Below are positions 13,615 through 57,283 of a DNA stretch of 64,000 bases, piece by piece. Both the position numbers and the translations under genes were made by a program. The first letter of the stretch is position 1. Each line of letters starts with the position of its first letter. Source of the stretch: an uncultured Candidatus Saccharibacteria bacterium. Lineage in GTDB: Bacteria > Patescibacteriota > CPR2_A > CAYFQT01. Location of the stretch: positions 5,685-69,684 of the forward strand of contig CAYFQT010000026.1 of assembly GCA_964345445.1 (NCBI GenBank). The letters run 5' to 3'. The notes beneath the pieces were generated by a model, which saw nothing but the letters and a program-made list of their open reading frames with translations, made no database searches and was not told the origin of the DNA.

Positions 13615-14067
13615 TTATCCAATTAGATATCTACAGGAATCATCTGTCAGCGGTTTTTCCTTTTTTTCTGCTCCTATAGTTTGGAGATTATAGGGGTTTT
13701 CGCCTAAACGAGGTAAAATTTTGTATTTGCATTCCTCGCAAAATGTCCATCTTTCTTTTCTTAGATTTTCAGGAAACATATTATGGATGCGGAAAAGATA
13801 ATTAAATCCTTTTTCACATCCACACAAAGTACAAGTGCCTCCATCTGACTTTTTGCCCGCAAATAAAGATTTTAAATCATTATAACATTCAATACATAAT
13901 AGATATTTGTCGCTATAAGCTTCTCTATTTCCTCGACTTAAATAAATTTTTACAGCTTTTCCTGCAGCTTTTTTATGGTAGTTTAAACCCTCTACATCAG
14001 AGGTTCTTTCAATTATTTTTTCTTTTCCACATCCATCGCTATCACATCTGAGATCATAAATTGACAT
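13615..14067 (-). CDS. cysteine-rich (four CxxC pairs) putative zinc-binding protein
   Basis: RBS AAAGGAGTG upstream on the minus strand. Motifs CDSDGC, CIEC, CTLCGC and CEEC. Confidence 0.5.
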   Translation of the reverse strand: MSIYDLRCDSDGCGKEKIIERTSDVEGLNYHKKAAGKAVKIYLSRGNREAYSDKYLLCIECYNDLKSLFAGKKSDGGTCTLCGCEKGFNYLFRIHNMFPENLRKERWTFCEECKYKILPRLGENPYNLQTIGAEKKEKPLTDDSCRYLIG

Positions 14068-14237
14068 TTTCTTTCACTCCTTTTAGATAGATTAATATGT
14101 TGTTTTCAAAGGACAATATATTTTGATATCTTAATCTATCATACTAAAAATTCTTTGTCAAATATAATTTGAGATGTTATACTTTTAAATAGCACTTAGC
14201 GCATAGCTTTTAGCACTTAGCAAATAGTGAGGTTATT

Positions 14238-14537
14238 ATGGCATTAACTAAGAAGCAAATTGAACATATTGCTATGTTGGCTCGTTTAGGTTTGACAGAA
14301 AAAGAAAAGAAGAGGTTTGAAAGACAACTTTCTTCTGTTTTGGACTATGTAAATCAACTTAATAAAGTAAATACAAAAAATGTCCAGCCAATTGCCCAAA
14401 TAACAGGACTTAAAAATGTAATGGAGGAGGATAAAGTAAAAAGTGATAAGGAGAAGATATCAAAAGATAAATTGTTGAAGAATGCGCCAATGCAGGAAGA
14501 AGGGTGTGTGAAAGTGAAAGCGGTATTAGAAGAGTAA
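14238..14537 (+). CDS. gatC: Asp/Glu-tRNA(Asn/Gln) amidotransferase subunit C
   Basis: MALTKKQIEHIAMLARLGLTEKEKKRFERQLSSVLDYVNQL is a canonical GatC N-terminus. Promoter-like TTGTCA-17-TATACT lies at 14152-14187. Confidence 0.85.
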   Translation: MALTKKQIEHIAMLARLGLTEKEKKRFERQLSSVLDYVNQLNKVNTKNVQPIAQITGLKNVMEEDKVKSDKEKISKDKLLKNAPMQEEGCVKVKAVLEE

Positions 14538-14596
14538 AGGTTACTATGAGTTACTAGAAGTTACTAATGGTTACTAAGAAAGTTACTAGAGGTTAT

Positions 14597-14992
14597 ATGC
14601 AAGAGGAAGCTTATAAAAAATTATTAGTTTGGAAAAATATTTGTGAGTTAAGAAGACTGATTTATAAAATAACTGAGAGATTTGCTAAGACTCATCCAAG
14701 ATTAGCTGGACAAATGAGAGACGCTACAAGATCAGCAAAACAGAATTTTATAGAAGGATATAAACGAGATTCAATTGGATTATTTATTCAATCTGTTAAA
14801 GTTAGCCGAGGCTCTTTAGGAGAATTGGATGGTGATATTGATGATTGTTATGAAGATAATTTAATTACAAAATTGGAGTATACTAATTTAAGTAATTTGA
14901 GTAAAAAATCTTTATACTTAATTGATAGATATATAGATTCGTTATATAAAATGCAAAAAGAAAAAACTTGGAGAGTAAGGTGGCAAAAATAA
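14597..14992 (+). CDS. four-helix-bundle protein (TIGR02436-like), inserted between gatC and gatA
   Basis: ...LLVWKNICELRRLIYKITERFAKTHPRLAGQMRDATRSAKQNFIEGY is characteristic of this family. ATG at 14597 has a better RBS (AGAGG) than the ORF-track start at 14567. Inverted heptamer arrays flank the gene. Confidence 0.65.
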   Translation: MQEEAYKKLLVWKNICELRRLIYKITERFAKTHPRLAGQMRDATRSAKQNFIEGYKRDSIGLFIQSVKVSRGSLGELDGDIDDCYEDNLITKLEYTNLSNLSKKSLYLIDRYIDSLYKMQKEKTWRVRWQK

Positions 14993-15059
14993 TTTTGCAA
15001 CCTTTAGTAACTTATAGCAACTATTAGCAACTATTAGTAACTTATATTTACTAATTAAA

Positions 15060-16646
15060 ATGAATTTAGAAAATCTTACAATTTTACAAGCTCATAAGAA
15101 GCTGAAAAATAAAGAGACTTCATCGGTTGAATTAACCAAAGCAGTTTTGGATAGAATTAAAAAGACTGATAATAAGATTAATGCTTTTATTACAGTCACA
15201 GAAAAAGAAGCATTAAAACAAGCAGAAGAGGCTGACAAACGGATTAAAACTGGAAAGATGCTGAGTAAACTTGATGGAATTCCAGTGGCTCTAAAAGACA
15301 ATATGGCAACAGAAGGAATTTTAACAACAGCTGGTTCTAAGATTTTAGAGAATTTTAAACCGCCTTATGATGCTACAGTTGTTAAAAAAATAAAAGATGC
15401 TGGTGCTATTATTATTGGCAAAACCAATATGGATGAGTTTGCCATGGGTTCTTCTTGTGAAACTTCTTATTTTGGTCCTACGAAAAATCCTTGGGATACA
15501 TCCCGAGTTCCTGGTGGCTCTTCAGGAGGTTCTGCAGCGGCTGTTTCAGCTTCACAATGCATTTATGCCCTGGGTTCTGATACCGGTGGTTCTATTCGCC
15601 AACCAGCCTCTTTTTGTGGTTGTGTAGGCTTAAAACCTACTTATGGTCGAGTATCTCGATATGGTCTTTTGGCTATGGCCTCTTCTTTGGATCAAATTGG
15701 ACCACTTGTAAAAAATACAGAAGATGCAGCAGCAGTTTTGGAGGCTATTTCTGGATATGATGGGGAAGATAGCACAAGCGTAGACAAAAAGTTCAAAGTT
15801 CAAAGTTCAAAGTTCAAAGTTTTAAAAAATGTAAAAATTGGGATTGCTAAGGAGTATTTTAGGGAAGGTTTAGATAAAAAAGTTGAAGATAAGATAAAAT
15901 CAGCGATTAAAGTTTTAGAGTCAAGGGGAGCCAAGATTGAAAATGTTAGCTTACCTCATACTCAATATACCTTAGCTTGCTATTATATAATTATGCCTTC
16001 AGAAGCTTCCACTAATTTAGCCAGATATGATGGAATAAAATATGGATATTCAACCACTCAAATCTCAAATCTCAACTCTCAAAACTTATTAGATGTCTAT
16101 CTACAATCAAGGGCAGAAGGTTTTGGAGATGAGGTAAAAAGGCGAATAATGTTAGGAACTCATACATTATCTTCAGGTTATTATGATCAATATTACTTAA
16201 AAGCTGCTAAAGTTAGAACAAAAATAAAAGAAGATTTTGACAAAGCATTTTCTAAAGTGGATGTTTTAATAACTCCTACTTCACCAACTGTTGCTTTTCC
16301 ACTCGGGGAAAAGTTAGATGATCCATTGACTATGTATTTATCGGATATTTATACAGTACCGGTTAATTTAGCCGGAGTGCCGGCAATTTCTGTTCCTTGT
16401 GGACTAGTTAAAAAGGTTACTAAAAGTTACCAAAAGGATACTAAAAAGTTACTAAAGAGAGTTGATAAAAATACTTTTAGTAACAATTTGCAACCCCTAG
16501 TAACCCCTAGTAGCTCATTATTACCTGTAGGTTTACAAATAATAGGTCCTCAGTGGGGAGAAGAGAAAATTCTACAAACAGCTTATATCTATGAACAGGC
16601 AACAAAAGATGAGGGGTGGAGGAAATTAAAGCCAAGTATAAAGTAA
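15060..16646 (+). CDS. gatA: Glu-tRNA(Gln) amidotransferase subunit A, with in-frame repeat insertions
   Basis: Amidase signature [11 protein letters not shown], plus [10 protein letters not shown] and the catalytic Ser/Lys context. Three low-complexity inserts are encoded by short DNA repeats. Confidence 0.9.
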
Positions 16647-16746
16647 TAGTAATAAGTAATAAGGAATCAAGAATAAAGGGTTAGGAATTAGGAATAGGGA
16701 ATAAGTAGTACTCCTTATAACTAATAACGGATAACTAGGAGCACAT

Positions 16747-17601
16747 ATGGGTAAAGCAGCCAGAATTAGAAGATTAAGAGAATTAGAAAGACAGCAAAAA
16801 GAAGTAGAAAAAAAGGATAAAAAACAATTGACATTAAGAATTGTATTTTTATCTCTGGCTTCTGTTGGTTTAATTGTTGGAATAATTATTATGGTTGTGA
16901 AAATTAATAAGATAAAAAAACAGCCTAAATCTTATAAGACAGGGGAGAGGACCTATTCTCAAGCGCCGGATATGCAAATTGATACCCAAAAAAAGTATAC
17001 AGCTACAATTGAAACATCTTTGGGGAATATCAAAATAGAATTGTTTACCCAAGAAACTCTTAAAACTGTAAATAATTTTGTAGTTTTGGCTCGGGATGGA
17101 TATTATGATGGGTTAAAATTTCATAGAATAATAAAAGATTTTATGATCCAGGGGGGGTGCCCAAAGGGTGACGGCACAGGAGATCCTGGATATAAATTTG
17201 AAGATGAGCCGATAACTGAAAACAGAGATTATACCCCGGGGATTGTAGCTATGGCTAATTCCGGTCCTAACACCAATGGCAGCCAATTCTTTATTATGCA
17301 TGGGGATAAATCTGGTGGGGGTTTACCTAAAAATTATGTGATTTTTGGTCAAGTTTTAGAAGGGATGGAAATAGTAGATCAAATTGCCAATGTAGAGACA
17401 GAGGATAATGGACAAGGGGAAGTATCTCGCCCAAAAGAGGGTGTTTTAATTAATAAAGTCACAATTTCCGAGGAAGAAGTTCAAGTAGCACCTTCAGAAT
17501 TTCCTGGACCAGAAGGCCAACCTATTGATATTCCAACAGAAGATTTACCAATAGAAAGCCAACCGATTGAGATGCCTGTAGAGGTTCCTCAAGGAGAATA
17601 A
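16747..17601 (+). CDS. cyclophilin-type peptidyl-prolyl cis-trans isomerase with N-terminal TM and acidic C-terminal tail
   Basis: FHRIIKDFMIQGG...GYKFEDE...MANSGPNTNGSQFFI is a classic cyclophilin core. Confidence 0.85.
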   Translation: MGKAARIRRLRELERQQKEVEKKDKKQLTLRIVFLSLASVGLIVGIIIMVVKINKIKKQPKSYKTGERTYSQAPDMQIDTQKKYTATIETSLGNIKIELFTQETLKTVNNFVVLARDGYYDGLKFHRIIKDFMIQGGCPKGDGTGDPGYKFEDEPITENRDYTPGIVAMANSGPNTNGSQFFIMHGDKSGGGLPKNYVIFGQVLEGMEIVDQIANVETEDNGQGEVSRPKEGVLINKVTISEEEVQVAPSEFPGPEGQPIDIPTEDLPIESQPIEMPVEVPQGE

Positions 17602-18598: not shown

Positions 18599-20131
18599 AT
18601 GGAATATCAGACAATAATTGGATTAGAAATCCATGTACAATTGAAGACAAAATCTAAAATGTTCTGCAGATGTGATAATTATTCAGTGGATGCCAAGCCA
18701 AATATTAATACCTGCCCAGTATGTATGGGAATGCCTGGAACTCTTCCAGTGATAAACCAGCAAGCTATAGAATGGGCAGAAAAGACCGCCTTGGCTTTAA
18801 ATTGTAAAATTTCCTCATTCACTAAATTTGATCGAAAAAGCTATTTCTATCCGGACTTACCCAAAGGATATCAGATATCCCAATATGATATGCCTTTAGC
18901 GGTAGGAGGATGGTTGGATATTGATGTGCCAGAGTCAAAAGTTCAAAGTTCAAAGTCTAAAGTCCAAAATAAGATGTATACTAGAAGAATTAAAATCACT
19001 AGGTTGCATATGGAAGAAGATGCAGCAAAGTTAATTCATTCCGTAAAGGGACGTGGTCCCTACGGGACTTTACGTCCAGAGGTGGCAGATTATAGTTTGG
19101 TTGATTTTAACCGTGCCGGAACTCCACTTATGGAAATTGTTACAGAACCTGACCTAAGCTCCCCACTTGAAGCAAAGATTTTTATGCAGGAGTTAAGAAG
19201 TATTTTGCGATATTTAGATGTTTCTGAAGCTGATATGGAGGAGGGAAATTTGAGATGTGATGCTAATATATCATTAAGTCCAAAGTCCAAAATCCAAAGT
19301 CCAAAGTTGGGGGAGAAGGTGGAAATTAAAAATATAAACTCTTTTAAGGCTGTAGAGAAAGCTTTAGCTTACGAAGTGGAAAGGCAAAAGGATATTTTAG
19401 AAAGTGGGGACAAGATAGTTCAAGAAACTAGAGGCTGGATGGAAGATAAAGGCAGAACAATCTCCCAGCGAGGCAAAGAAGAAGCAGAAGACTATCGTTA
19501 TTTTCCCGAACCAGACTTGCCACCATTGGAATTTGAAAAAAAACAAGTAAAAGAAATTCAATCGAAATTACCTGAATTGCCTAACCAGCGCCAAAGAAGA
19601 TTTGTTAAAGAATATGACCTGTCAATGTATGATGCTCAGGTTTTAACTTCTGAGAAAGAAACATCTGTCTTTTTTGAAGACACAGTTCAAAAAATATCCA
19701 AATTAAATCACGAAAAGGCCAAGAGGGCGTGCAACTGGATAACAACGGAATTGCAATATTTACTTAAGGATAAAGATATAGATATTAGCAAATGCAAAAT
19801 TAAACCAAAGGATTTAGCCGAGCTTATTGGATTAATTGACAAAGGAGAAATCTCAGGGAAAATAGCCAAAGATGTATTCGTAGAAATGTTTAATTCCGGA
19901 AAAGCCCCTTCGGAAATTGTGAGTAAAAAAGGATTAAGACAAGTTAGTGATGAAGGAGAATTAGAGAAAATTATAGATAAAATTATATCTCAAAATAAAC
20001 AAGCAGTTTCTGATTATAAAGAAGGAAAGGAAAATGCATTTAAGTTTTTAGTAGGGCAGACAATGGCTTCTACCCGCGGTCAAGCCAATCCTCAGATGGT
20101 TAATAAGATATTGAAGGAAAAATTGAAATAA
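18599..20131 (+). CDS. gatB: Asp/Glu-tRNA amidotransferase subunit B, with two in-frame repeat insertions
   Basis: MEYQTIIGLEIHVQLKTKSKMFC.C...GMPGTLP and DFNRAGTPLMEIVTEPD match GatB. It carries a C-terminal GatB/YqeY domain. Confidence 0.9.
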   Translation: MEYQTIIGLEIHVQLKTKSKMFCRCDNYSVDAKPNINTCPVCMGMPGTLPVINQQAIEWAEKTALALNCKISSFTKFDRKSYFYPDLPKGYQISQYDMPLAVGGWLDIDVPESKVQSSKSKVQNKMYTRRIKITRLHMEEDAAKLIHSVKGRGPYGTLRPEVADYSLVDFNRAGTPLMEIVTEPDLSSPLEAKIFMQELRSILRYLDVSEADMEEGNLRCDANISLSPKSKIQSPKLGEKVEIKNINSFKAVEKALAYEVERQKDILESGDKIVQETRGWMEDKGRTISQRGKEEAEDYRYFPEPDLPPLEFEKKQVKEIQSKLPELPNQRQRRFVKEYDLSMYDAQVLTSEKETSVFFEDTVQKISKLNHEKAKRACNWITTELQYLLKDKDIDISKCKIKPKDLAELIGLIDKGEISGKIAKDVFVEMFNSGKAPSEIVSKKGLRQVSDEGELEKIIDKIISQNKQAVSDYKEGKENAFKFLVGQTMASTRGQANPQMVNKILKEKLK

Positions 20132-20457
20132 TTCGAAGAATATTGAGAATTACTAATGAACAATTGCTAATTTCTAATCAAATCCCAATGACTAATAAAG
20201 AAACAAAATTCTAAATCCGAAATTCTAAATACTAAATCCTAAATCCCAACGGGATCCCTTCGGGACAATATCAAATGACCAAAATGCTACCACAGCCCCA
20301 CCCAACCACCCTTTTATTGTATAGATTATATAACAAAACAATATAAGTTTAGAACATTGGAAAATTTGAATTTTGAATTTATTTAGGATTTAGAAATTAG
20401 ATATTAGAAATTTTATAAGATAAGTTAATTGTGTTATATTAAAACCAAGGAAAAATA

Positions 20458-21099
20458 ATGCGAAGAAAAAGAAAAGCAAAAGTTACAATAGAAGAAGATG
20501 AAGAAGTTACAACGGGTTGGTCCAAAGTCCAGAAATATTTGGAAGAGAAGAATATCAATTCTTTTCTTTTAGCTGTTTTAGAAGCTGATAAATTATTAGC
20601 CAAGGCATTAAAAGATAAAGGTTATCCTGGCAAGACCACCCAGGAGAAGATTGGAGCAGCCAAGGAAAAATTTACCAATATCAATTTTCTTCTTGGTGCA
20701 AGAGATATACGAGATAAGATTATTAATAAAATAGATTATAATCTTTCTTCTTTGGATTTAGAAGATGCTATTTCTGCCTATAGGCAAGCCATAATTGATT
20801 TAGGAGAAGAATCAGAGAAATTACCTATTTCTGAAAGATTATTACTTCTTTTTCATTATTATTATCCTTCTAAAAAACAAGCACTTAAAAAAATTATTAT
20901 TTATATAGTTTTATTTTTTACAATAGTTTGGTTTTTGTCTCATACTTCACTAGGACAAAATATTGTTAATATTGTAGTAGGAGTAACCAATATTATTTTC
21001 AGTTGGGTTTTAGCAATAGTTTTGTTGGTTGTGGGAGTTATAATTACGGTGATTGCAAGTCTTTTGTATTTTGAGAAAAGAAGGAAGGAAAGAAGATGA
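20458..21099 (+). CDS. hypothetical membrane protein
   Basis: Charged N-terminus, then two to three TM segments (IIIYIVLFFTIVWFL..., IVLLVVGVIITVIASLLYF). Confidence 0.4.
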   Translation: MRRKRKAKVTIEEDEEVTTGWSKVQKYLEEKNINSFLLAVLEADKLLAKALKDKGYPGKTTQEKIGAAKEKFTNINFLLGARDIRDKIINKIDYNLSSLDLEDAISAYRQAIIDLGEESEKLPISERLLLLFHYYYPSKKQALKKIIIYIVLFFTIVWFLSHTSLGQNIVNIVVGVTNIIFSWVLAIVLLVVGVIITVIASLLYFEKRRKERR

Positions 21100-21258
21100 T
21101 GTAAAAATTCTAAATCCGAAATCCTAAACAATATCTAAATTCCAATGTTCAAAATTCTAAACATTATATTTGTTTTGGTCATTTGGATTTAGATATTAGG
21201 ATTTGTTTAGAAATTAGATATTAGAAATTAGGATTTTAATTTAAAGGGGTGAACAAAT

Positions 21259-45846: not shown

Positions 45847-48066
45847 ATGAAACTTTCTACTCCTGTTTTCAAGCTCACTGGAGTAGGTGAGAAATATTTA
45901 GAGAAATTGCACAACCTGGGCATAAAAAGAGTCGAGGATCTTCTTTTTTATTTCCCTAGAAAATATAATGATTTCAGCCAAATTATTCCTATTAATAAAA
46001 TACAATTAAAAGAGATAGCTACAGTTTGTGGAACTATTTGGGAAATTAAAAATCAAAGAACATATAAAAAGAAAATGATGATTACCACAGCAACCATAGC
46101 AGATAATTCCGGAACCATAAAAGCTATTTGGTATAGACAGCCTTATTTGACTAATAGTCTTAAACAAGGTTATGAAGTTATATTTTCTGGAAAAGTAGAA
46201 GAGGATAAGGGAAAACTAATTTTTCAAAATCCAATTTATGAAGTTGTTAAAGATGTTCAAAATGTTAGCAAAAAACAATTACAGCAAGCTTGCCCCTATA
46301 TCCATCGGGACAAGCAATCGAACAAACATAGTGATCGAACAAGCTTGCCCCAAAAACCTTCGGAGTGGGCGATTGAACAACTTACTCATGTTGGCAGAAT
46401 TGTTCCTTCCTATTCGGAAACAGAGGGTTTAACTTCCCGTTGGCTTCGATATAAAATTAAGCCTCTTTTATATTTAGTAGAACAAATAGAAGACTATTTA
46501 CCTTCTGAAGTTAAAAAAAATCAGAATCTAATAGATTTATCGCAGGCGATAAAACAGATTCATTTTCCGGAAAATCATAATTTACTTAAAAAGGCTAAAA
46601 AAAGACTTAGTTTTGACGAGCTTTTTTTAATTCAAGTAAATAATTTGAAACAAAAGATTAATTGGCAAAAGGAAAAAGGCGTGGCTTGTAAATTTGATGA
46701 AAGGCTAACTCGAAAATTTGTTTTAAGCCTGCCTTTTGATTTGACTTTAGATCAAAAAAAAGCAGCTTGGGAAATTCTCCGTGATTTACAGAAATCAATT
46801 CCTTCAAACAGACTTTTGGAAGGAGAAGTAGGCTCAGGAAAAACTGTTGTAGCAGTTATTGCTATGCTTTCAGTAATTAAAAATGGAATGCAAGTAGCCT
46901 TTATGGCTCCCACAGAAATTTTAGCTCAGCAACATTACAAAAAAATCAGTTCTTATCTTGCTCCTTTTAGAATAAAAATTGCTTTACTTTTAGGAAGCAC
47001 TAAAAAGAAAGAAAAAGAAAAAATCCGAAAGCAGATTGAAAAAGGCAAGGTAGATTTAGTTATAGGAACTCATGCTTTGATTCAAGACTACAACCCACCC
47101 ACCACATCCTCCCGTCCCGACAAATCGGGACGGGCCCCTAAAATTAATTTTAAAAACTTAGCTTTGGCTATAATTGATGAACAACATCGTTTTGGTGTTG
47201 CCCAAAGAGCTGCTCTGCGGGAAAAGTCAGGTGATAAGCATAGTCCTCATCTTTTGACTATGACAGCCACTCCTATTCCTCGCACACTAGCTTTGGCTTT
47301 ATATGGTGATTTAGATTTGTCTATAATTTCTGAACTTCCTCCGGGGCGACAGAAAGTTATCACCCAACTGGTTAAACCTCAACAAAGAGAAAAAGCCTAT
47401 AAGTTTGTCAAAGACCAGATAAGGAGAGGAAGACAGGCTTTTGTTATTTGTCCTTTAATTGAAGAATCAGATAAATTGGGAGTGAAATCAGTAACTTTAG
47501 AATATGAAAAGTTGTCTAAGAAAATTTTCCCTGATTTAAATATTAGAATGTTACATGGTAAGCTTAGATCAAAAGAAAAAGAAAAGATAATGGGCGATTT
47601 TGTCCGGGGTGAAATAAATATTTTAGTTTCTACTTCTGTTGTGGAAGTAGGAATTGATGTGCCAAATGCTACAGTTATGGTTATTGAAGGGGCAGAAAGA
47701 TTTGGCTTGGCTCAATTACATCAATTCAGAGGACGAGTAGGACGAAGTAAATTTAAATCCTATTGTTTTTTGTTTACTGAATCAAAAACTAAGAAAATTT
47801 TTGCTCGACTTTATACATTAGTTAAGTCTTATGATGGATTTAGACTAGCTGAAGCAGATCTGAGAATTAGAGGACCGGGAGAAATTTACGGTATGAGACA
47901 ACATGGTATTCCAGACTTGAGAATGGCTTCTTTACAAGATGTAGATTTGATTAAAAAAGCAAGGGAAGAAGCAGAGAAATTATTAGGGGAGGACCCCCAA
48001 CTTGAAAAACATCCAAAATTGATTTCAGAAATAGAAAAGTTTGTAACAATTAGGCATCTGGAATAG
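45847..48066 (+). CDS. recG: ATP-dependent DNA helicase RecG, with two in-frame repeat/hairpin insertions
   Basis: Wedge/OB domain and helicase motifs (GEVGSGKT, DEQHRFG, TATPIPRT, QLHQFRGRVGR). 739 aa. Confidence 0.9.
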   Translation: MKLSTPVFKLTGVGEKYLEKLHNLGIKRVEDLLFYFPRKYNDFSQIIPINKIQLKEIATVCGTIWEIKNQRTYKKKMMITTATIADNSGTIKAIWYRQPYLTNSLKQGYEVIFSGKVEEDKGKLIFQNPIYEVVKDVQNVSKKQLQQACPYIHRDKQSNKHSDRTSLPQKPSEWAIEQLTHVGRIVPSYSETEGLTSRWLRYKIKPLLYLVEQIEDYLPSEVKKNQNLIDLSQAIKQIHFPENHNLLKKAKKRLSFDELFLIQVNNLKQKINWQKEKGVACKFDERLTRKFVLSLPFDLTLDQKKAAWEILRDLQKSIPSNRLLEGEVGSGKTVVAVIAMLSVIKNGMQVAFMAPTEILAQQHYKKISSYLAPFRIKIALLLGSTKKKEKEKIRKQIEKGKVDLVIGTHALIQDYNPPTTSSRPDKSGRAPKINFKNLALAIIDEQHRFGVAQRAALREKSGDKHSPHLLTMTATPIPRTLALALYGDLDLSIISELPPGRQKVITQLVKPQQREKAYKFVKDQIRRGRQAFVICPLIEESDKLGVKSVTLEYEKLSKKIFPDLNIRMLHGKLRSKEKEKIMGDFVRGEINILVSTSVVEVGIDVPNATVMVIEGAERFGLAQLHQFRGRVGRSKFKSYCFLFTESKTKKIFARLYTLVKSYDGFRLAEADLRIRGPGEIYGMRQHGIPDLRMASLQDVDLIKKAREEAEKLLGEDPQLEKHPKLISEIEKFVTIRHLE

Positions 48067-56646: not shown

Positions 56647-57283
56647 TTTAAAAATTTCAGGGTCAATTCGGTGAGATTTTGTTTATATATGTTGAAATAA
56701 GCTGAAATCTTGCAGTCTTGACCCTCTTTTTTATATTAATTCTATTTACAAATATACGCGATCGCGGTATATTGTTAATGATTATTAATAAGAAATGTTA
56801 TTTTTGTTGCCTTTGTTACTTTTGTTACATCTGTTATTTCACCCCTTGCATTGCTTTTTCTTTTTGTGTATAGTAAAATATGTTATAATAAAGATAGTTC
56901 AAATTGTTCAATCGTTTGTTTTACTCACTTATTCAGAATGTTCAAATTGTTGTCATGAATTTCTCTCGAATTATATCGAATTAAATCCCGAATTTGAACA
57001 CGAATAGAATATTCGAGTATTATTTGTGTAGATATTCGCATACTATTGGAGAATGATTCGTGAAATTTCCTTAATTGACATTATTTTTAGATATATGTTA
57101 GACTAAAAAAGGTGGGTTTTATTCTAAGAGACAAGTAATTGAATATTTTTATATAACCTCGTTTTTTCTTTGATTATAAGGGAAGAGAAGGAGGGATATT
57201 TTCTATTTGTTAGTTAGATTAATATTAATATTGAAAAGTAAAGTGTAACCAATTTATAAAACAATAAATGAGGGAAATAAATT

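Follow-up and report, generated by a model that had tools for sequence, protein, structure and literature searches.

Some repeated DNA elements of bacteria are translated together with the genes that they enter. For example, Rickettsia palindromic elements (RPEs) insert in frame in Rickettsia genes and add a peptide to the product at a site that suits the protein fold, and transposable elements of the miniature inverted-repeat kind (MITEs) can fuse in frame with host open reading frames (ORFs) (PMC10969869). Other small elements lie within bacterial rRNA as intervening sequences (IVSs). The IVS of Coxiella carries an S23p ORF, terminal inverted repeats and tandem heptamers before the ATG, and it is excised by RNase III; the number of upstream heptamers varies between strains, and according to an old, untested proposal this IVS is or was mobile, with its ORF involved (PMC4990558). 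Where the bacterial rRNA IVSs come from and what the S23p ORF does are questions that date from the early 1990s (PMC4990558). In this study, we analysed a stretch of 64,000 nucleotides (hereafter the window) from an uncultured Candidatus Saccharibacteria bacterium (GenBank assembly GCA_964345445.1, contig CAYFQT010000026.1, positions 5,685 to 69,684), in which a segment made of GTTACTA-type repeats lies in frame within gatA. We believe that this segment is probably an ORF-less derivative of an IVS-type cassette with a four-helix-bundle gene, which sits in a permissive loop of the protein and has become adapted to translation.

The host gene gatA occupies 15060-16646 on the plus strand and matches PF01425 (E = 1.5e-163) as well as GatA chains in the PDB (down to 7.6e-156); the nearest relatives of its product are from Parcubacteria-type bacteria of the Candidate Phyla Radiation (CPR). 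Within it, the left arm of the mini-element (16410-16457, plus strand) contains GTTACTA, GTTACCA, GATACTA and GTTACTA, starting at 16416, 16426, 16437 and 16448, with A-rich spacers, and codes for 16 residues; a degenerate forward unit, GTTAAAA, stands at 16407. The right arm (16477-16514, minus strand) contains TAGTAAC, TTGCAAC, TAGTAAC and TAGTAGC, starting at 16478, 16488, 16498 and 16508, and codes for 13 residues. A centre of 19-23 nt separates forward from inverted units, and its core (16458-16476, plus strand) is probably what remains of a four-helix-bundle ORF at its 3' end. An earlier note, made from the letters alone, had described about 100 bp of such repeats followed by the same family in the opposite orientation; the sequence was as described, and its in-frame translation gave the same peptide. 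That note had placed the segment at 16418-16515 (98 bases), which was right for the location, whereas the extent was corrected to a net 105 nt at approximately 16410-16514. It had also called the element palindromic. Only the orientation of the 7-nt cores, and not the spacers, bears this out, and the predicted hairpin of the element is weak (z = -1.5 for RNA and -0.9 for DNA). The two arms now pair weakly because the left spacers are A-rich and the right spacers are C-rich. A search of 14000-17000 against Rfam gave no match.

The repeats are concentrated in two places of this AT-rich window (G+C, 32.8%). GTTACTA was observed 14 times compared with 5.9 expected, a count that was reached in 0 of 100 shuffles, and 11 of the 14 copies form two clusters, one in the flanks of a four-helix-bundle gene and the other in the gatA insert. 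Arrays of at least three GTT[AG]C units with 9-12-bp spacing were found four times, compared with 0.015 in shuffles, and three of the four are arms of the cassette and of the gatA insert.

Comparison with other GatA proteins showed that the segment was inserted. The match to solved structures stops after SVPC and restarts at LPVG, with 5 residues between them in Aquifex and 3 in S. aureus, which bears out the earlier statement that the segment lies between the SVPCG and PVGLQIIGP blocks, where only a few residues (3-5 in the solved structures) are normal. Among 26 orthologs that were aligned, the most similar (P0002, 81% identical) lacks the segment and reads PCGLV-DN-LPVGL. Its contig L001 (GCA_004196295.1) is syntenic with the window over more than 20 kb, and the DNA alignment of the two contains a single clean gap, 105 columns wide. 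This gives a net insertion of 35 codons at approximately 16410-16514, with junctions ambiguous by a few bases. When loop lengths between PCG and LPVG were counted in the 120 best homologues, 80 had 4 residues and 10 had 5, and the 39 residues of the window were the longest. The earlier note had reasoned that a homologous segment at this position in unrelated lineages would mark an ancestral domain. What was found in some other CPR bacteria were loop inserts of unrelated DNA: a tandem array of the heptamer AAACAAC in L202, a perfect 13-bp inverted repeat (CCCCGTTAGAAAT...ATTTCTAACGGGG) in L203 and direct repeats in L204. From these sequences, we regard the GatA loop as a hot-spot for independent insertions, which it tolerates in many CPR lineages, and not as the site of an ancestral domain. 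Unexplained protein insertions are common in the CPR.

The other cluster of repeats belongs to an intact cassette between gatC and gatA. The gene order is gatC, an ORF of 131-141 aa (14567 or 14597 to 14992), gatA, PPIase, two small ORFs and gatB; gatC (14238-14537, plus strand; PF02686, E = 1e-19) is the upstream operon neighbour of the cassette. In the left arm (14535-14596, plus strand), GTTACTA starts at 14540, 14550, 14560, 14570 and 14582 and is followed by GAGGTTAT right before the ATG of the four-helix-bundle gene (14597-14992, plus strand; PF05635/TIGR02436), for which an alternative ATG at 14567 lies within the array. The right arm (14993-15055, minus strand) begins directly after the stop codon and carries TTGCAAC at 14995, TAGTAAC at 15005, TAGCAAC at 15015 and 15025, and TAGTAAC at 15035, in the opposite orientation and with exact 10-bp spacing. 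The claim that the GTTACTA family also flanks the adjoining four-helix-bundle gene was thus confirmed, in the form of inverted arrays on both sides, although the IVS type of the cassette had gone unrecognised in the earlier note.

The small ORF scored 56.5 bits against Pfam PF05635, the 23S rRNA IVS protein family (cut-off 33.8), and 50.3 bits against NCBIfam TIGR02436, "four helix bundle protein" (cut-off 24). Read from the ATG at 14597, the protein has 131 aa and a pI of 9.5, and it keeps all the invariant residues of its subfamily. The nearest solved relative is Xanthomonas XCC0516 (PDB 2gsc, E = 7e-11), which has five chains per entry, and the Xanthomonas S23p relative has been described as a toroidal homopentamer (PMC4990558). 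The RNA of 14525-15065 folded at -128.1 kcal/mol (z = -7.17; 0 of 100 shuffles were as good), and in this fold the two arrays form a long terminal stem with the ORF in the loop. The cassette is missing from L001, in which only 40 bp separate gatC from gatA, and also from L202 and L204. Judged by the syntenic relative, the full cassette is an insertion too.

Two gatC-gatA spacers of relatives were also noted. The spacer of L001 (L001 9962-9991; GTAATAGTATATTAA x1.9) is similar to the outermost part of the right arm (window 15034-15059), with approximately 17/22 matches by eye, and may be either the relic of an arm or a target that looks like an array. The spacer of L203 (L203 2231-2500), on a Nealsonbacteria-type contig, is 270 bp long, G+C-rich and looks structured, and in Rfam it gave only a sub-threshold suhB/mmgR match (23 bits compared with a gathering score of 41).

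The gatA insert was then compared with the cassette. Aligned colinearly with the left arm plus the right arm, the insert scored 70, compared with 22.7 +/- 3.9 for shuffles (maximum 38), and this alignment takes in the unit order and the TTGCAAC variant. Taken separately, the left arms scored 53 (shuffles, 17.7 +/- 4.0) and the right arms 40 (shuffles, 17.8 +/- 3.6). For the 22-nt centre of the insert, the best ungapped match in the cassette was 15/22 at 14973-14994, which covers the end of the ORF and the stop codon and is the colinear position; a match of at least 15/22 occurs at only 25 of the approximately 64,000 positions of the window. Because the insert is colinear with the cassette minus the ORF, it looks like an ORF-less deletion derivative. 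The simplest reading of these alignments is an internal deletion that kept both arms and the last 20 or so nucleotides of the ORF. Members of the family in the window are a full copy, a mini copy and, at 56806, a single arm. The last is an intergenic array (56806-56828) of GTTGC/GTTAC units with 9-bp spacing (TTTGTTACC x3.8) and no visible inverted partner.

Could the repeats have expanded in place, by microsatellite-like slippage within gatA, so that their likeness to the cassette flanks is a coincidence? The window is rich in short tandem arrays inside gatA and gatB, and the L202 ortholog has its plain AAACAAC array in the same loop. However, slippage yields direct arrays and not two opposed ones, and it does not provide for the colinearity in unit order, TTGCAAC variant and ORF 3'-end remnant, nor for the fall of 11/14 GTTACTA copies of 64 kb into these two places. 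We therefore consider such an origin very unlikely, and derivation from the cassette is preferred.

The insert is compatible with translation. Its 35 codons, a length that is a multiple of three, are free of stops in the frame of gatA, whereas four of the other five frames contain 3-7 stops and the fifth contains one. The frame shifts between one unit and the next, as the units measure 10-11 nt. At the position of the second unit, a canonical GTTACTA would read AGT TAC TAA; the actual unit is GTTACCA, in which C at 16431 replaces T and the last codon becomes CAA. The encoded peptide is basic, with 9 K+R compared with 2 D+E and a pI of 10.3, and its lysines come from the A-rich left spacers. 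An AlphaFold2 model of GatA, built on the ortholog alignment, had a mean predicted local distance difference test (pLDDT) score of 79.4. Residues 454-485 of the insert were below 50, and they lie between two beta-strands (442-451 and 487-495) with pLDDT of about 94. Because of these low values, the model suggests that the insert is an unstructured surface loop in a beta-hairpin of GatA.

Two other explanations of the loop were considered. One is that it is a functional, lineage-specific extension of GatA, such as a lysine-rich loop that contacts tRNA, or an insert that was exapted. The peptide is basic, the enzyme binds tRNA and the frame has been maintained, all of which would suit this explanation, but the segment is missing from the 81%-identical ortholog, other lineages have unrelated sequences at the site, the low model confidence suggests no stable fold, and lysines follow trivially from A-rich spacers. 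A functional loop is therefore extremely unlikely in our opinion. The other is that an assembly or binning error produced the insert. Repeats do break assemblies, and the contig of an independent Logan assembly (run ERR2564001) ends in a heptamer array at 15815. Nevertheless, this contig reproduces window 14267-15815 base for base, so the upstream cassette is not an assembly artefact, and the identical 528-aa GatA protein is recorded from 3 contigs. With an uninterrupted ORF, an insert length that is a multiple of three and conserved sequence on both sides of the insert as well, an artefact is hardly credible at all.

In line with the derivation from a cassette, we propose the following course of events. 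The intact cassette, 1.4 kb upstream between gatC and gatA, would represent the parent type, a small selfish element that consists of a promoterless PF05635 gene bounded by inverted arrays of approximately 10-bp units built on the core GTTAC. Once transcribed with the operon, the arrays would form a long stem by pairing, and the ORF would lie in its loop. The 105 nt that lie in frame in the beta-hairpin loop of GatA are probably such a copy, from which nearly the whole ORF was lost, and they would now be translated as a lysine-rich, disordered and functionally neutral surface loop. Two routes of entry would be the most probable: recombination or template-switch copy-in at array-like microhomology (target TTAGTAG), and mobilisation in trans through a protein able to recognise the 10-bp-phased units. 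Selection on the essential gatA would then have kept the frame open, with one unit mutated where TAA would arise, and would have eroded the arm-to-arm pairing, which would prevent a strong RNase III-type stem in the mRNA. We infer that the open frame and the lost pairing are what would remain if all variants that hinder the translation of an essential mRNA had died out.

The architecture of the cassette was examined in its relatives. A metagenome scan with an alignment of 24 close homologues of the four-helix-bundle protein gave 80 loci, and the counts were made on the 69 non-redundant loci with enough flanking sequence. In the 100 nt upstream of the gene, the strand of the gene carried a mean of 3.36 GTTA[AC] cores and the opposite strand 0.61; in the 100 nt downstream, the opposite strand carried 3.29 and the strand of the gene 0.65. 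Control windows on the same contigs had 0.2 cores. Of 333 core-to-core gaps, 231 showed a spacing of 10 bp. Upstream, the final unit usually runs right up to the ATG, and downstream, the first unit typically includes the TAA stop codon. The complementarity between upstream and downstream flanks exceeded the 95th percentile of shuffled-arm scores in 55 of the 69 loci, and in 50 of the 69 a locus's own arms matched better than those of another locus.

The unit type varies between loci (GTTACTA in 17, GTTAATA in 11, GTTACAT in 8, and others), with a variable 2-nt tail that tends to agree between both arms of one locus. Loci with the same unit had a protein identity of 0.650 compared with 0.599, a difference that was reached in 0 of 1000 permutations. 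Because the unit type tracks protein similarity, the four-helix-bundle gene and its arrays evolve together. Upstream units most often numbered five (18/63 loci), followed by three (16/63), and their number differed even between near-identical loci (L178 compared with L179/L185), so the arrays are dynamic. The cassette was co-oriented with its upstream neighbour in 55/60 loci and with its downstream neighbour in 47/54, with spacers of 45-66 nt. As in the window, these cassettes behave as promoterless passengers inside operons. Mismatches between the arms showed a modest bias towards pairs that are G.U-compatible in the sense RNA (130 compared with 84, p = 0.002). This hints at pairing at the RNA level, and purine-rich, Shine-Dalgarno-like upstream units could also explain it.

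A different arrangement was seen in L181, L193 and L197, where each side of the gene carries a complete small hairpin of array, short centre and inverted array instead of a single arm; both centres read GTGTCAAAT in L181 and in L197. Such a pattern suggests that the gene can sit between mini-elements or insert beside them.

Arrays of the unit itself were looked for in species-representative genomes with a pattern of three phased GTTACTA/GTTGCTA units, and at least 120 loci were obtained. Among the matches listed, 71 arrays had periods of 10-11 bp, 60 of them intergenic, and arrays with periods of 9 and 12 bp were mostly coding repeats. The same matches included compact inverted pairs without a gene (L008, L051, L074, L078, L082, L090, L100 and L011), the first six of which stand a little upstream of host genes that differ from case to case. 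Small GTCCC...GGGAC hairpins are nested between the units of at least four (L008, L078, L082 and L090). Some genomes hold several arrays: at least five loci in JAHIPW01 (L008, L057, L078, L082 and L093), of which L008, L078 and L082 are inverted mini-elements, and at least four in JABDAV01 (L009, L021, L034 and L094). Four-helix-bundle genes flanked by GTTACTA arrays were found in L044 (Omnitrophota), in L059 and in L072 (Alistipes), and the hidden Markov model made from the 24 close homologues was too narrow for divergent four-helix-bundle genes beside arrays.

Five Firmicutes loci (L023, L035, L042, L054 and L061) carry a triple GTTACTA with 11-bp spacing, and no four-helix-bundle gene was detected there. 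A Pfam scan returned five Ribosomal_S9 (rpsI) matches, members not specified, that may belong to these loci. The triple is probably an unrelated regulatory or terminator feature.

Several observations weigh against a derivation of the gatA segment from an IVS-type cassette. Only two family members, the full cassette and the gatA insert, are visible in the window. No transposase or recombinase is recognisable in the cassette, whose sole product is the PF05635 protein, a clear target-site duplication was not seen at the junctions of the gatA insert, and the hairpin of the insert was no significant gain over shuffles. In the Pfam scan of 84 array-adjacent ORFs, most arrays had no neighbouring four-helix-bundle gene, so GTTACTA arrays in general are no marker of the cassette. 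No second convincing in-frame case was found among the 71 listed arrays with periods of 10-11 bp, which makes the translated gatA copy unusual within its family. Alignments of short AT-rich repeats, from which the scores above come, inflate similarity, and approximately 1/4 of the aligned positions differ between the mini-element and the arms of the neighbouring cassette.

Because of this last difference, the gatA insert is no recent copy of the neighbouring donor, which bears on another possible route: the arms of the neighbour may have been copied locally by gene conversion or template switching, primed by TTAGTAG, with no need of active mobility. A donor-like cassette does lie only 1.4 kb off in the same operon, and arrays recombine or slip readily, as the unit numbers of L178 and L179/L185 indicate. 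The ancestral target in L001 reads GGGTTAGTAGATAAT, similar to the TTAGTAAC unit, TTAGTAG is itself unit-like, and CTAGT is present at both junctions (16404-16408 and 16508-16512), where the second copy falls within a repeat unit. Besides the divergence of the arms, the occurrence of cassettes and mini-elements at many unrelated sites in several phyla argues against this route, for local conversion is insufficient to account for it. We consider local copying unlikely, and it concerns only how the segment was inserted, not what the segment is.

Returning to the segment as a cassette derivative, we can extend the idea, with much more reserve, to the whole family. PF05635 cassettes with inverted, 10-bp-phased GTTAC arrays may possibly form a widespread, undescribed class of mobile elements that dwell in operons, with the rRNA IVS as a special case. 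The toroidal pentamer might read the units on DNA or on folded RNA and so drive copying or RNase III-type excision, and ORF-less derivatives might ride along, even into coding sequence. This is a tentative proposal. The insertion in gatA at least suggests that such cassettes can move and colonise protein-coding DNA.

Other repeats were noted in the same window. The gatB gene has a 36-nt hairpin insert in frame at 19041-19076 (GGACGTGGTCCCTACGGGACTTTACGTCC, peptide SVKGRGPYGTLR), which is missing from the 84%-identical GatB of L001; the latter has its own 7-residue insert, CLAGRQE, at another site. In a recG-like ORF (45847-48066), an in-frame segment YNPPTTSSRPDKSGRAPK at approximately 47090-47143 holds the hairpin CCCGTCCCGACAAATCGGGACGGG. 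The pattern GTCCC-N(3-9)-GGGAC occurs in the window only in the recG-like ORF and in gatB (expected, 0.02), and a hairpin of the GTCCC/GGGAC type is also nested between GTTACTA units in L078, L082, L090 and L131. Translated tandem arrays of heptamers (AAAGTTC, CTCAAAT, CCAAAGT and AAGTCCA) are present in gatA at 15788-15821 and 16057-16083 and in gatB at 18929-18968 and 19276-19307; at the first gatA site, L001 has TAAAAAG instead and other CPR orthologs have KFKIQN-type peptides. These arrays are a second, separate kind of repeat that colonises coding DNA. Furthermore, intergenic arrays of the heptamer AAATYCT, followed by inverted AGRATTT arrays, lie at 20200-20415 and 21105-21240 and flank an ORF at 20458-21099. 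Hairpin folding is strong in the second of these elements (RNA z = -4.15) and weaker in the first (z = -2.2). The two make up a separate unit family of the same inverted-array design.

We found no account of four-helix-bundle cassettes bounded by arrays, nor of palindromic insertions in frame in CPR bacteria, in the open literature, subscription titles not being covered. The analogy with RPEs, which the earlier note had drawn, holds functionally, as the insert is in frame and its surface loop is predicted to be disordered. Like RPEs, which measure approximately 100-150 bp, the gatA insert of 105 nt is derived from a repeat and lies in frame in a housekeeping gene. The host here belongs to the CPR/Patescibacteria, however, and the arms are arrays of 10-bp units with a weak hairpin instead of a simple palindrome. 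The insert would also derive from a gene-bearing cassette, and only one in-frame copy of its family was seen here compared with dozens of RPEs per genome. The likeness is one of analogy, and no sequence kinship is claimed. If our interpretation is correct, the RPE phenomenon, in which selfish DNA is translated within housekeeping proteins, extends to the CPR.

The term MITE-like, also used in that note, fits in part. The gatA element is small, with nothing in it but repeat units and a probable ORF remnant of approximately 20 nt, and has no coding capacity of its own; as in MITEs such as Correia, ERIC and Nezha, its termini are those of a larger element, of which it would be a non-coding derivative. 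ORF-less elements of this kind are dispersed and, in some genomes, multi-copy (L008, L078 and L082 in one metagenome-assembled genome). What does not fit is the parent, since no transposase is encoded in the cassette. A clear target-site duplication is not visible, and the termini are tandem arrays; their 7-nt cores are inverted, and the arms pair weakly in gatA, with the z values of -1.5 and -0.9, and strongly in the parent cassette (-7.17).

Avd, the accessory protein of diversity-generating retroelements (DGRs), is of the same family and has a homologous four-helix-bundle fold (PMC10053308; PDB 2gsc match). Unlike in a DGR, no reverse transcriptase, template or variable repeat lies beside the gene, whose neighbours are the housekeeping genes ligA, gatC, gatA, PPIase and gatB, and a scan of viral contigs gave no relatives of its subfamily; a DGR was rejected on these grounds. 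Integron attC sites were rejected as well, the unit being unlike GTTRRRY/RYYYAAC, and attC sites are not known to form tandem arrays. An intein or intron was rejected on account of size, the insert being too small, and because matching motifs are lacking.

Ring-shaped proteins are known to read phased short repeats, such as TRAP on GAG/UAG repeats and MraZ on repeats spaced by 10 bp. By analogy, a toroidal homopentameric S23p protein (PMC4990558) might read the 10-bp-phased arrays, of which the window has five units. In contrast to a strict correspondence of this kind, three upstream units are almost as common as five among the metagenomic loci. The five GTTACTA units and the four-helix-bundle protein provide concrete substrates for experiments.

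The full cassette has the build of the ORF-bearing 23S rRNA IVS of Leptospira and Coxiella burnetii. In both, a PF05635 gene lies in the loop of a stem of terminal repeats, short tandem repeats stand right before the ATG, and the element, which is regarded as selfish and perhaps mobile (PMC4990558), is within a host transcription unit. The cassette of the window differs in its place, an mRNA operon spacer instead of helix 25/45 of the 23S rRNA, with a probable derivative in a coding gene; because it is located between gatC and gatA, it should not be filed as an rRNA IVS. It also has 10-bp GTTAC-core arrays on both sides, and its ORF-less copy is predicted to be translated and not excised. One operon thus presents a cassette of the IVS kind outside rRNA, its presence and absence relative to a syntenic relative, and a probable ORF-less derivative in an essential gene. 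Together with the non-random architecture of the 69 relatives (phased arrays, co-varying arms and co-orientation within operons), this locus points to a mobile selfish element and offers a tractable handle on the mobility of IVS-type cassettes and on the role of their conserved protein.

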